DNA of 62,192 nucleotides, taken from assembly GCA_052055015.1 (NCBI GenBank), contig JBQJIT010000021.1. One strand, written 5' to 3'. The position numbers and the translations under genes are program-made. The stretch comes from Malassezia furfur. Taxonomy: Eukaryota. The notes beneath the pieces were generated by a model. It saw only the letters and a list, made by a program, of their open reading frames with translations. It made no database searches and was not told the origin of the DNA. This document shows, piece by piece, positions 845-59,585 of the stretch (position 1 is its first letter; the number at the start of each line of letters is the position of its first letter).

Positions 845-1852
845 ATGGACGAGAGGGACCCGGCGGCGCACGGCGCGCGCGTCGTGGTGTACGTTTCCTG
901 CCTTACACAGACACGCGCTGCCACTTATGGTCATGGTCGAGCACCTTGCACGGTCACAACTCGCGCAGGAACCGCATAGTAGGTGTTGCACACGCCTTAC
1001 CCAGCGTTCGGCATCCTCCTCGGCACCTTCTCGGGCTCGCACATCGAGGTGCACAGCGCATTTGAGGTGCCCGCCGTGACGTCCTCAGAAGCACGTCTAG
1101 ACTCCGCCTTTTTGCGCCGGAGACAGGAGCAGTGTAGGTTGCGCGCCGCACTCACACGCAGTCCAGCAGGTCTTCCCCACATGGGACGTTGTCGGCTGGT
1201 ACACGGTGCAGCAGCTCCCCGCCACGGCCGAGGCCATCACCAAGGAACTACAAACGTATACACCGGAACCGCTCGCGATTGTACTTCACCCCAGCACCGC
1301 AGCCTACACACACGCTCAGAAAACGGGCACGCTGCCGATCACTGCCTACCTGCCCAGCAATGGCTCGCTGGAGCCTACGACTGCCGCACTCGGTACTGCG
1401 CCTGCAGAGCACGTCGTACTGAGCGACGCCAATAGCCGCGCACGGCACACGGGCGACGAGTCATCCGCAGAGAGCAACGCGATCCTCGCCGCGCTTACCG
1501 CCGAACGTGGCGCCATGCAGGCGCTCTGCGAGCGTCTTCAAAGCGCTTGCGCATACGTTGATGGTGTACAGCAAGGGGTGCATCCCCACAACGATGCCCT
1601 GCTCCGCCGACTCGCGGCGGCCGTCGCGAACCAGGGTAGTCGCGCACCGCCGCGCTTTGACGCACTTCAGGAACGCGTACGTATGCACGCATGCGTTTCC
1701 CACACTTACACAGGACGCCGACTATGCACACATGATGGACTACCTCGCCGACCTGACCAACAACCTGCACGCACTTAACGAGGTACGTGCGTCGCCCCGC
1801 ACTCACACAGCTGGTGGAGCTGGGTAGCTTGAGCGCGCGCCGCGGGGTGTAG
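845..1852 (+). CDS. CSN6: COP9 signalosome subunit 6 (inactive MPN domain); 5 introns: 889-910, 979-1004, 1134-1161, 1677-1713, 1783-1810
   Basis: Splicing restores VVVHALPLMVMVEHLAR, TFGILLGT, EVHSAFEV, FLRRRQEQFQQVFPTWDVVGWY and a C-terminal DYAHMMDYLADLT, which are hallmarks of CSN6/eIF3f-type MPN proteins. All introns are GT..AG with a CTYAC branch motif. Confidence 0.8.
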
Positions 1853-1911
1853 CACGTGGCCACACGTGGCATAGGCGCGTCGTCGCGGCTCGTCGTTTAA
1901 CGTGCGCGGCG

Positions 1912-4429
1912 ATGGGCGACGCGCTGGAATTTGATGTGCCTGCGCTCGATGACGATCTGTTGAAAGATCGTGCGCGCACATTTGTAGAGTTTCTGGATGA
2001 TCAAACTGGCGCTGTGGACTACCGCGGCGCGATCCGCCATATGCTCGCCGAGGACAAGCGGCGCCTCGTGGTCAATTTGGACGACGTGCGCGCGTACAAC
2101 CGCGAGTACGCTGACGGTCTCTTGAATGACCCGAATAGCTTTCTGCCAGCATTTGAGAGTGCGCTGCGTGTGTTGGTGGAGCAGCTGCACGACCCGCTCA
2201 AGGAAGACATCAAGGGCAAGCAATACCATATCGGTCTGCGGGGCAGTTTCGGTGACCATCACGTCAATACACGCACGCTGCACAGCACCTACCTAGGGAA
2301 GCTGGTCAGCTTGGAAGGAATTGTAACACGATGTACGTCGCGCATAATTCACTAACCCAGGCTCGCTCGTCCACCCCAAGATCACCGAGTCGGTGCACTA
2401 TTGCGAGGCTACCGAGCGGTTCCATGTGCGCGAGTACCGCGACGCGACGATGTTTGGCTCCGGGCCACCAACCTCGACGACATACCCCACAACGGATGAG
2501 AGCGGAAACCGGCTCATTACCGAGTACGGTCTGAGTGTCTTCCGCGACCACCAGATGATCTCGATCCAAGAAATGCCCGAGCGCGCGCCGCCAGGACAGC
2601 TGCCGCGCAGCATTGACGTGGTGATGGACGATGACTTGGTCGACCAGTGTAAACCCGGTGACCGGATCCAGCTCGTGGGCATGTACAAGTCACTCGGAAA
2701 CCGGGTGGGGCAGAGCAGCACCTCGACGTTCCGTACGCTGATGATTGGCAACTACCTGAATATGCTCGCGAATCGCGCCGGTGGCGGCTTCTCACACATC
2801 CCGTTGAGCGATCTGGACATTCGCAACATTAATAAGATCGCCAAGCGCCGCGACGTATTCGAGCTGCTCTCCCTGTCGCTCGCGCCGTCCATTTTCGGAT
2901 TAGACTATGTTAAAAAGGCGGTGTTGCTGTTGCTGCTGGGCGGCCTCGAGAAGAATTTGCCCAACGGCACCCACATTCGTGGTGACATCAACGTGCTCAT
3001 GGTCGGTGACCCTTCTACGGCCAAGAGTCAGATTCTGCGCTTCGTGATGAACACGGCGCCGCTAGCAATTGCCACGACCGGTCGGGGCAGCAGTGGCGTT
3101 GGTTTGACGGCCGCCGTGAACACCGATCGCGAAACGGGCGAACGCCGACTCGAGGCAGGTGCCATGGTACTGGCTGACCGCGGCGTGGTGTGTATCGACG
3201 AGTTCGACAAGATGTCGGAGACCGACCGTGTGGCGATCCACGAAGTGATGGAGCAACAGACGGTGACGATCGCCAAAGCAGGAATTCACACCACACTTAA
3301 CGCGCGGTGTTCAGTGATTGCGGCAGCGAATCCCATCTACGGCCAGTATGATGTGCACAAGGAGCCGAGCAAAAACATTGCCTTGCCCGACTCGCTTTTG
3401 TCGCGTTTCGATTTGCTGTTTGTCATCACCGACGATGTCAACGAGGAGCGTGACCGGCGCATATCGGAGCATGTGCTGCGCATGCACCGGTACGTGCAAC
3501 CCGGCCAGGCGGTCGGCGCGCCGGCCAAGGATAACCTCGACCAGGTCCTGGATGTGGGCGGCGGCGACAACGCCCAAGCCGCCTCATCGAGCGACCGGAC
3601 CGACACGGACGACGGCACAGACAACGAATCGCCGTTTGAAAAGTACAACCCGCTCTTGCACGTGGGCGTCGCGGAGCATGACGGGCACAAGGAGGTGCTC
3701 ACCATTGCGTTCGTCAAAAAGTACATCCAATACGCCAAGACGCGCATTACGCCGACGCTGACCAAGGGTGCCGCGGACTGGATCACAAACGTGTATGCGA
3801 ACCTGCGCAACGACGAGCTAGCCGGTGCGCAGCGCAAGACGGCGCCACTCACCGCGCGTACACTCGAGACGCTGATTCGTCTGGCGACGGCCTACGCCAA
3901 GGCGCGGCTTAGCCCACGCGTCGAGGAACGCGACGCCGAGGCGGCCGAAGAAATTCTGCGGTACGCGCTCTTCAAAGAGGTCATGCGCACGCGGCGCAGC
4001 GGAAAGCGACAAAAGACGCGCGACGCAGACGACGACGAGGAAGAAGAAGACGACGACGAGATGGACCAAGACGAAGCCGAGCGCGAACTGGGCGGTGCAC
4101 ACTACCAGACAGCCTATGCTACGCGGAGAGCGACGCGCCAGGATGCACTCTCGAGTGCCGCGCAGGGGCTCGAGGCGACGTCGCAGTCTCTCCTGGCCGC
4201 GGCGGAGGCGCAGGCGCCGCCGCCGCGGATGGGCGTCTTTCGCCGGCGCGTGGCCGAGGCGCTCGCAGGACCGTTTGCGGAGAGCGAGTACGTGGACATG
4301 GCTACGTTGCTCGATCATATCAACACGTCGCGTGACACGTTCTCGCCCGAAGAAGCGCGCGCTGCGCTGGCGGCTATGAGCGACGCGAGCGAGATCATGT
4401 TTGCGGAGGACGTGGTGTACAAGATCTAG
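1912..4429 (+). CDS. MCM3: DNA replication licensing factor MCM3; intron 2333-2360
   Basis: Motifs: EGIVTRCSLVHPK across the splice, [15 protein letters not shown], Walker [17 protein letters not shown] and arginine finger SRFD. Confidence 0.95.
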
Positions 4430-58389: not shown

Positions 58390-58423
58390 ACGATGTTCAA
58401 AGCAATGCCCTACATGTTCCCGA

Positions 58424-59585
58424 TTACAGGTTTTCCAGCACCGCCGCAGTGAACTGCTGCGTAGTCGACGAGCCGCCCATGTCCACGGTGCGGACTTTGC
58501 CGTCCTTGATCGTGCGGTACACGGCCGCAGCAATCTGGTTCGCCTGGTAGTCGAGACCAAAGTGACGGAGCATCATGGTAGCGCTCAGGATCATGGCCGT
58601 GGGGTCGGCCTTGTTGGTGCCCATGATATCCTTGGCGACGTGACGGCAGCCCGGCTCGTACAGGGCATAGTCGCGGCCGATGTTAGCACCCGGCACCGTA
58701 CCCGGGCCACCAACGAGTGCGGCACCAATGTTCGACACGATGTTGCCGTACAGGTTGGGCATGACCATCACGTCGAACTGCTGGGGCTTGCCGACGAGCT
58801 GCATCGAAGTGTTGTCGACGATCATGTCGTTGGCCTTGATGCCGTAGACCTTGTACTCCTCGGCCACACGGCGGAAGGTGTTGAGGAAGAGACCGTCACC
58901 GAGCTTCATAATGTTGGCCTTGTGCACGCACGTCACCGTCTTGCGGTTGTTCTTCAGCGCAAAGTCGAAAGCGAAGCGCGAGATGCGTTCGGCCTTGAAG
59001 CGCGTCGAGACCTTCAGCGACTCGACGATGCCGGGCGACGGCGAGTGCTCGAGACCACTGTACTCGCCCTCGGTGTTCTCACGAATGATGGTAAAGTCGA
59101 CGTCCTTGTGACGCGTGGGAAGGCCCTCGAGCGACTTGCAGAACACCATCGAGGCATAGATATCGAGCTTTTGGCGCATTGCCACGTTCCACGAGTTGTG
59201 CGAGCCAGCGCCCGTGGGGGTGAAGAGCGTGCCCTTGAGGCCGACCTTGTTGCGCCGCAGGCTCTCCATGGCCTCCTGGAACTGCTTTTCGTTGCCCTGC
59301 ATCTCGCCCGAGAGGTCGTACTGCTCCCACTCGACGGGCACGTTGAGCGTGTCGAAGATCTCCTTCACCGAGTCGGTAATCTCCTTGCCGACACCATCAC
59401 CGGGGATCAGCGTCGCGGTGTACACGCCTCCGTACTTGGTCGGGCCCTTGCTGAGCAGGGGGGTCTGGGCGGTCAACGTCGAGACGGAACGAATGGCCTG
59501 GGTCAGCGAATACGCAACATACCTGCTTCTGCGCCATGCTGGCACCAGCGAGAGCCGATCGCGAGACCTTGGAAAGCGCGCTCAT
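58424..59585 (-). CDS. IDH1: NAD-dependent isocitrate dehydrogenase regulatory subunit 1; intron 59522-59498
   Basis: Presequence MSALSKVSRSALAG, then KYGGVYTATLIPGDGVGKEI, SWNVAMRQKLDIYA, MPNLYGNI and EPGCRHVAKDI (regulatory-subunit signature). Confidence 0.95.

Follow-up and report, generated by a model that had tools for sequence, protein, structure and literature searches.

Malassezia introns have been described in a review as very short (PMC7426719). In Malassezia sympodialis the curated set holds 5,350 introns with a mean of 30 base pairs (bp), of which 5,271 (99%) are supported by RNA-seq, whereas automated sets gave means of 65, 52 and 50 bp (PMC5389616), and the re-annotation of M. 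restricta lowered the minimum intron length to 15-20 (PMC6473144). Here we describe 34 introns of 21-41 nucleotides (nt) in a stretch of Malassezia furfur DNA, contig JBQJIT010000021.1 of assembly GCA_052055015.1, whose whole length of 62,192 nt is called the window below. The likeness to M. sympodialis lies in the genus, in short introns, which in that species have RNA-seq support, and in automated annotation that goes wrong; the part of that paper available to us gives neither a minimum length nor an account of branch geometry, splice signals or the spliceosome, and its length distribution (Fig. S8) may already show the lower edge reported here (PMC5389616). The accessible part of PMC8476143 does not mention how long Malassezia introns are. 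A search that lacked most subscription journals gave no paper on the splice signals or the spliceosome of Malassezia, and no earlier report of a 21-nt floor or of U2AF2 RRM1 loss in the genus.

Outside the genus, the 15-16-nt introns of Stentor coeruleus share the position of the branch adenosine, about 6 nt from the 3' end (a 5-nt tail), canonical small nuclear RNAs (snRNAs) and a near-fixed geometry; they differ in a loop of 10-11 nt, AU-richness, weak signals and fixed length (PMC9505925), whereas in the window the loop is at least 16 nt, GC is 56%, donor and branch follow a strong consensus, and the length distribution has a tail towards longer introns. Introns of 20-34 nt in Paramecium and of 18-21 nt in the Bigelowiella nucleomorph (PMC6009652), and those of myxobolids and dicyemids, with medians of 22-27 nt (PMC13644364), agree with ours in length range, in major-spliceosome GT-AG ends and in having no pyrimidine tract. 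As far as these sources were accessible, the introns of all of these have reduced signals, often with no clear branch motif, whereas the Malassezia signals are strong. Malassezia is not among the exceptions named in the accessible part of the myxozoan paper (PMC13644364).

Number, length and signals of the introns

The initial annotation had listed 33 short GT-AG introns in the window. All were recovered together with one further 24-mer, and gene models built from coordinates across the whole window now hold 34 in 16 genes: one of 21 nt, four of 22, five of 23, four of 24, two of 25, seven of 26, six of 28, two of 30 and one each of 35, 37 and 41 (median 26 nt, mean 26.3 nt). Introns shorter than 30 nt make up 29 of the 34, and of the 257 candidates of 21-45 nt present in 442 kilobases (kb), 218 are 21-29 nt long. 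Compared with the genome sample, which is about 4% of the assembly and was drawn from the largest contigs, the window introns are somewhat long (median 26 nt against about 23-24 nt, with a sample mode of 22 nt; p = 0.03). The share of 21-23-nt introns is 0.28-0.31 in contigs C2 and C4 and the window and 0.52-0.67 in contigs C1, C3 and C34, a post hoc difference (chi-square p = 0.0003) for which GC content is no obvious predictor. A fixed pattern of donor, branch and YAG gives 29 matches at 21-30 nt, nested duplicates included, where 4.5 are expected and the maximum among 100 shuffles is 10. At 15-20 nt (1 against 2.0), 31-45 nt (8 against 7.3) and 46-60 nt (6 against 7.0) the window has no excess.

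The shared donor and branch motifs, and the missing tract, are as first described. All introns run from GT to AG, their donor hexamers are all U2-like and match GTRNGY, G stands at +5 in 34/34, C at +4 in 26/34, and GTACGT is used in 16/34. Every intron has a CTNAY or TTGAC branch motif that can pair with U2 GUAGUA. The branch A, as placed by this motif, lies at -6 in 22/34, and the longest pyrimidine run between it and the AG is at most 4 nt in all 34. The donor-to-branch distance of 10-16 nt given initially holds for 26/34 if counting starts behind the donor hexamer; the branch A itself lies from +16 to +33, with a median of 19.5. With this consensus, a GC content of 56% and lengths up to 41 nt, the introns are not of the reduced-signal, AU-rich, length-measured type. 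U12-type (minor) introns have a long invariant donor and branch consensus, and the U2-like donor hexamers set ours apart from these. In the sample GTACGT is the donor of 120/222 candidates, C at +4 is preferred despite a canonical U6 ACAGAGA and a METTL16-like gene, and lengths divisible by three are not depleted (85/222).

Evidence for splicing

The rhomboid and PQ-loop genes provide evidence that is independent of the splice motifs. Scored against homologue profiles (30 non-Malassezia proteins of 120 listed for rhomboid; 13 distant matches of 34 for PQ-loop), each of the four rhomboid and two PQ-loop junctions ranks first in its set of 12-44 alternatives, and the rhomboid profile score is 635.5 bits with all four introns removed and 551.7 bits with none removed. 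Within the rhomboid gene, a 22-nt exon sits between introns of 23 and 22 nt (22876-22810, minus strand). The two introns add up to 45 nt, so the unspliced gene keeps an uninterrupted reading frame of 511 amino acids, in which a conserved motif is lost; gene finders can easily be misled here. At five further junctions the Pfam positions on either side are collinear. At the place of the 21-mer in IWR1 several relatives have no insert, while others have an intron-like insert of 7-8 residues.

The window is the entire contig C21 of an assembly of 13.7 Mb in 1,856 contigs, and in a homology search the top named matches of three proteins of the window come from Malassezia. Bases 32-8629, at this contig end only, have a second copy on L004/L005 with 88% identity; other contigs pair up at about 86% identity, and U6, U1-70K, the METTL16-like gene, U2AF2 and Slu7 are each present twice. 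To judge from these sequences, the assembly points to a hybrid or diverged diploid Malassezia, and the diverged second genome copy serves as a built-in comparative test of the intron candidates. In the window all seven comparable introns keep GT..AG in the second copy, two of them with length changes that are not multiples of three. Between the copies, 123 kb with 107 candidates were aligned at 86% identity. Among candidates of 21-23 nt, GT..AG is kept in 46/47 and the length differs in 10, in nine of these by non-multiples of three. Divergence between the copies is about three times higher in candidate interiors (0.37) than in flanks (0.13), and the codon phase fits splicing in 19/21 cases and read-through in 1/21. 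Searches with two further regions of the window, 8.6-28.5 kb and 43-62 kb, revealed no second copy; the one-sided copy may reflect loss of heterozygosity or a collapsed assembly. Two 10-kb stretches elsewhere (L098 and L099, on contigs C54 and C57) have 47-48% GC, against about 60-64% in the rest, and few intron candidates, and neither yielded an alignment that passed the filter; they possibly lie near a centromere.

A splice model trained outside the window ranks all 34 junctions first among frame-preserving GT/GC-AG alternatives, a result that is partly circular and includes two junctions without an alternative, and the codon score is better for the spliced frame in 26 of 27 frame-shifting introns. 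Homologue profiles thus bear on seven introns, Pfam collinearity on five and the second copy on seven (MCM3 being counted twice), and for the remaining 16 the evidence is the frame with the codon and splice scores. The claim that the inserts are real U2-type spliceosomal introns is supported by homology, codon statistics and the second genome copy, and the four junctions that had been singled out for checking (889-910, 21422-21401, 21962-21983 and 22831-22810) are exact 22-nt GT..AG introns.

A floor at 21 nt

The genome-wide length histogram that had been proposed as a check, made on a 400-kb sample, shows an excess of short introns that starts abruptly at 21 nt, with a mode of 22 nt. Outside the window 3 motif pairs were counted at 20 nt, 31 at 21, 40 at 22 and 37 at 23 nt, over a background of 3.2 per length. 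From +15 to +16 the count of branches in 442 kb rises from 1 to 36 where the A is at -6, from 1 to 5 at -7, from 0 to 4 at -8 and from 0 to 4 at -9, and the shorter spacing classes, -4 and -5, are near background. The abrupt start at 21 nt is therefore set by the branch A, which shows no enrichment at positions below +16 and is mostly at -6. The edge is no product of the pattern, which allowed a branch from +10 on. Two components make up the floor: the branch A is no nearer to the donor than +16, and no fewer than 5 nt follow it. In the second copy, 17 of 22 candidates of 21 nt are unchanged, five are longer and none is shorter. An intron at the floor has just 4 nt of linker from donor +6 to the U2 helix, and the minimal donor-branch distance of 16 may simply be the sum of 6 donor, 4 linker and 6 branch nucleotides.

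Introns below the floor were sought as strict candidates of 12-20 nt in 580 kb. Inner donors of longer introns account for 26 of the 34 that were found, three of the other eight fall within coding sequence with an open frame, two share bases with a stop codon, one adjoins a transfer RNA (tRNA)-like gene and one is ambiguous; the last is a 17-mer in L030, and none of the 34 is supported as an intron. The 17-mer, on the minus strand of L030 about 1141 nt from its start, has perfect donor and branch motifs and precedes a likely signal-peptide start codon; it is the sole sub-21 candidate that might be an intron of a 5' untranslated region.

The splicing machinery

The U2 GUAGUA and U6 ACAGAGA recognition elements are intact, so altered recognition boxes were rejected. 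Four spliceosome proteins were probed, U1-70K, U2AF2, Slu7 and a METTL16-like protein, and all four are present. Slu7 loss, considered as a match to the short branch-to-AG distance, and METTL16 loss, considered as the cause of C at +4, were rejected on the presence of Slu7 and of two METTL16-like genes. U1-70K has two copies with an intact RRM; relative to human, the RRM of the L101 copy contains an in-frame insert of nine residues, which from its sequence is probably a 27-nt intron. No convincing U1 snRNA was seen among 100 of 133 motif matches listed, many of which resemble donor sites read on the opposite strand; the U1 search scored 41 of 173 candidates, had no positive control and does not show absence.

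In both copies of U2AF2, RRM1 has R, V, S and A at the positions of human F197, F199, K225 and R227, and RRM2 has I at that of Y302. Human U2AF65 F197 and F199 have a stacking role. K225 and R227 contact the tract, and R227A weakens affinity about five-fold (PMC4786784). Among 150 U2AF2 homologues the usual residue type is kept at F197 in 131/143, at F199 in 125/142, at K225 in 128/149 and at R227 in 132/148. The protein is canonical in the named relatives Ceraceosorus and Melanopsichium, while its two nearest homologues (75% and 52%) have a partial form of the RRM1 change. The ULM tryptophan and the UHM RxF motif are kept.

The introns gene by gene

Unless another basis is given, the introns in this section are based on gene model, splice-model score and codon score. 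Near the left end of the window the second copy is the comparison. The CSN6-like gene (plus strand) has five introns, at 889..910 (22 nt, also 22 nt in the second copy), 979..1004 (26 nt; 25 nt in the second copy, a change that is not a multiple of three), 1134..1161 (28 nt) and 1677..1713 (37 nt), both found in the second copy, and 1783..1810 (28 nt; 24 nt in the second copy). The 28-nt intron of MCM3 (2333..2360, plus) is in the second copy too, and across its junction the MCM_OB profile passes from position 22 to 24; the 26-nt intron of a Rab11-type GTPase (5053..5078, plus) is likewise in the second copy. An MTR10/transportin-3-like gene has an intron of 28 nt (9709..9736, plus). VPS4 (minus strand) starts with a 30-nt intron that splits the start codon as AT/G and is followed by a 22-nt exon (13674..13703); next come a 26-nt intron with an AAG acceptor (13626..13651) and one of 23 nt across which the MIT profile is collinear (13491..13513).

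In the PQ-loop gene (minus) the 22-nt intron at 21401..21422 is the best of 34 alternatives against the homologue profile, and the stop-free 24-nt intron at 21192..21215, of a length divisible by three, is the best of 17 and gains 10.9 bits when spliced. The gene at 21882-22135 (plus), which we take to be a BET1-like SNARE, has a 23-nt intron at 21882..21904, a 22-nt intron at 21962..21983 to which frame logic and the splice score (18.2, against 14.3 for a 55-nt alternative) apply, and a 23-nt intron with an AAG acceptor at 22113..22135, the sole case where the codon score does not favour the spliced frame (24-nt exon). The rhomboid introns (minus) are at 23193..23222 (30 nt, divisible by three and stop-free; best of 44 alternatives), 22854..22876 (23 nt; best of 12), 22810..22831 (22 nt, after the 22-nt exon; best of 19) and 22565..22588 (24 nt, divisible by three and stop-free; best of 14). 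The shortest intron of all, that of IWR1 (24333..24353, plus; 21 nt, divisible by three and stop-free), is the best of 24 alternatives by only 1.8 bits and has a strong splice score.

Single introns of 26 nt lie in an RXT2-like gene (31755..31780, plus) and in a cytochrome P450, presumably ERG5-like (44025..44050, minus). The stop-free 24-nt intron of a cyclin gene (51348..51371, minus), again of a length divisible by three, is proposed from its splice score. The VPS24/Snf7-family gene (plus) has introns at 53643..53670 (28 nt, with 31 nt possible; the sole intron with a U run), 53920..53943 (24 nt, divisible by three and stop-free; the Snf7 profile is collinear only if it is spliced), 54066..54093 (28 nt; Snf7 profile collinear) and 54218..54243 (26 nt), and histone H2A has one of 41 nt (55633..55673, plus; Histone profile collinear). 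The gene with introns from 57024 to 56196 (minus), Nudix-like on our assumption, has them at 56999..57024 (26 nt), 56682..56706 (25 nt, scoring 10.3 against 8.5 for a 22-nt alternative), 56518..56540 (23 nt) and 56196..56230 (35 nt); neither it nor the BET1-like gene gave a Pfam match in single-exon scans. The last intron, of 25 nt, is in what we assume to be an isocitrate dehydrogenase subunit gene (59498..59522, minus).

Two tRNA genes were seen in passing. At 33338-33423 (minus) ARAGORN calls tRNA-SeC(TCA), where the sequence reads by eye as tRNA-Asp(GTC) with a short anticodon-loop intron; neither ARAGORN nor Rfam reports the second, an apparent tRNA-Arg(CCT) at about 35033-35127 (minus) whose intron measures some 22 nt.

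Discussion

We consider it probable that these are ordinary-chemistry U2-type introns of a compact genome which have shrunk until they reached the 21-nt floor, and which are defined by their signals and engaged sequentially. Each would be defined by two strong RNA pairings, that of the donor with U1 and then U6 and that of the branch with U2, and the 3' site would be the first YAG at a fixed short distance behind the branch. The 5 nt behind the branch A, against a minimum of 8 nt in human and a mean of 13 in S. pombe (PMC8624252), leave no room for a tract, so that the branch would fix the 3' site and U2AF2 would probably be mainly a protein bridge that no longer reads a U tract. In the human B complex the U6/donor and U2/branch helices are 15 nm apart and about 50-52 nt are needed from donor to branch (PMC6692369; see also PMC4463651). 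By this comparison the introns appear too short for the standard geometry, as had been suggested for U1 and U2; the steric constraint would apply to the B complex as much. With a linker of 4 nt at the floor, donor and branch cannot both hold the human B-complex spacing. Engagement of donor and branch is probably sequential, or else docking of the donor on U6 is delayed until activation.

Several points weigh against this account. The introns are known from DNA alone, with branch points taken from motifs, and frame logic alone cannot show the introns of a length divisible by three that have no in-frame stop (six of the seven such introns in the window, including the 21-mer). The VPS24 intron at 53643-53670 is a weak point, as an end 3 nt later is possible (score 1.2 against 0.8). 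The motif scan is blind to non-consensus introns, possibly shorter ones, and introns whose branch A lies at +10/+11 are spliced in Stentor (PMC9505925), so that 16 is not a universal physical limit. Two Rfam searches with RF00003 gave no U1 snRNA over threshold (best E 1.4). Both RNP1 aromatics are absent in 8/150 U2AF2 homologues, and the seven of these that were looked up include those of Orbilia, Lipomyces, Nadsonia and a choanoflagellate; RRM1 erosion is thus not special to tiny introns.

The initial annotation also proposed an adapted spliceosome. This finds only partial support: the eroded U2AF2 RRM1 is the sole change found, while U2 and U6 are canonical and U1-70K, Slu7 and the METTL16-like gene are present. 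Reduced spliceosomes of the type in microsporidia and Cyanidioschyzon have lost the U1 snRNP or many core factors. Schwartz et al. (2008) reportedly found that the U2AF65 RRMs co-vary with pyrimidine-tract strength in fungi. Our case is the same in that RNA-contact residues are lost where the tract is missing, as also in Orbilia, Lipomyces and Nadsonia, and differs in lying inside the Ustilaginomycotina, whose sampled named members keep canonical RRMs. In myxozoans, by contrast, U2AF1/2 is reported as conserved (PMC13644364). From these sequences the erosion would seem to track the missing tract rather than intron length, and, as it also occurs in some ascomycetes, it leaves the short donor-to-branch distance unexplained. 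A bolder reading, which we hold to be less likely than not, would be a complete but re-tuned early spliceosome, in which U2AF2 works without RRM1 RNA binding, the 3' step is fixed at 5 nt, the lariat has a hard minimum of 16 nt and assembly skips the A/B-complex spacing.

The main rival to the account favoured above is an essentially unmodified, flexible fungal spliceosome that assembles sequentially or across exons; the 21-nt edge would be a fall-off in efficiency, and the U2AF2 changes would stem from relaxed selection after tract loss. The presence of all six detected components (U2, U6, U1-70K, U2AF2, Slu7 and METTL16-like), the canonical snRNAs kept by myxozoans (PMC13644364) and Stentor (PMC9505925) with equally short introns, and the similar RRM1 loss in ascomycetes all fit this explanation. 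Human extracts, however, fail at donor-to-branch distances of 35-46 nt, more than twice the floor (PMC6692369), and the RRM1 change is partly present in the two nearest homologues and absent from the named outgroups; we regard an unmodified machinery as rather unlikely. U1-independent splicing, in which U6 and U5 read the donor directly and the clash with U2 is gone, would agree with the U1 snRNA search results and with the preference for C at +4, a mismatch to the usual 5' end of U1, but the two U1-70K copies with their intact RRM and the limits of the U1 search make it very improbable. An origin of the inserts in assembly errors, frameshifts or short insertions of coding sequence can practically be dismissed, even though six of the seven introns divisible by three have no stop codon and such introns appear in translated form in some public proteins, in view of the motif excess, the conservation of GT..AG with length changes that are not multiples of three between copies, the exact profile collinearity across junctions and the RNA-seq support in the congener M. 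sympodialis (PMC5389616).

Conclusions

The short introns are real and were already known at the genus level; to that knowledge we add the 16+5 floor and the eroded U2AF2 RRM1. The systematic mis-annotation expected from such lengths is supported here and was already known (PMC5389616, PMC6473144). Among 13 NCBI Malassezia models of IWR1, the rhomboid and the PQ gene, five (P0004, P0014, P0075, P0143 and P0145), judged from their proteins, look defective at intron sites. Gene finders and aligners for Malassezia need a minimum intron of 20 or less, as several public models look wrong at these sites. How introns of 15-30 nt are removed is an open question for which ciliates, nucleomorphs and parasites have been the main subjects. 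Malassezia is culturable and amenable to gene deletion (PMC5654937), and with about 5,000 such introns, readable signals and relatives with long introns it could be a practical model of tiny-intron removal, for which the sharp 16+5 floor gives a precise, testable prediction. If the re-tuned spliceosome is true, this would be a culturable, transformable fungus that splices thousands of 21-30-nt introns in this way.

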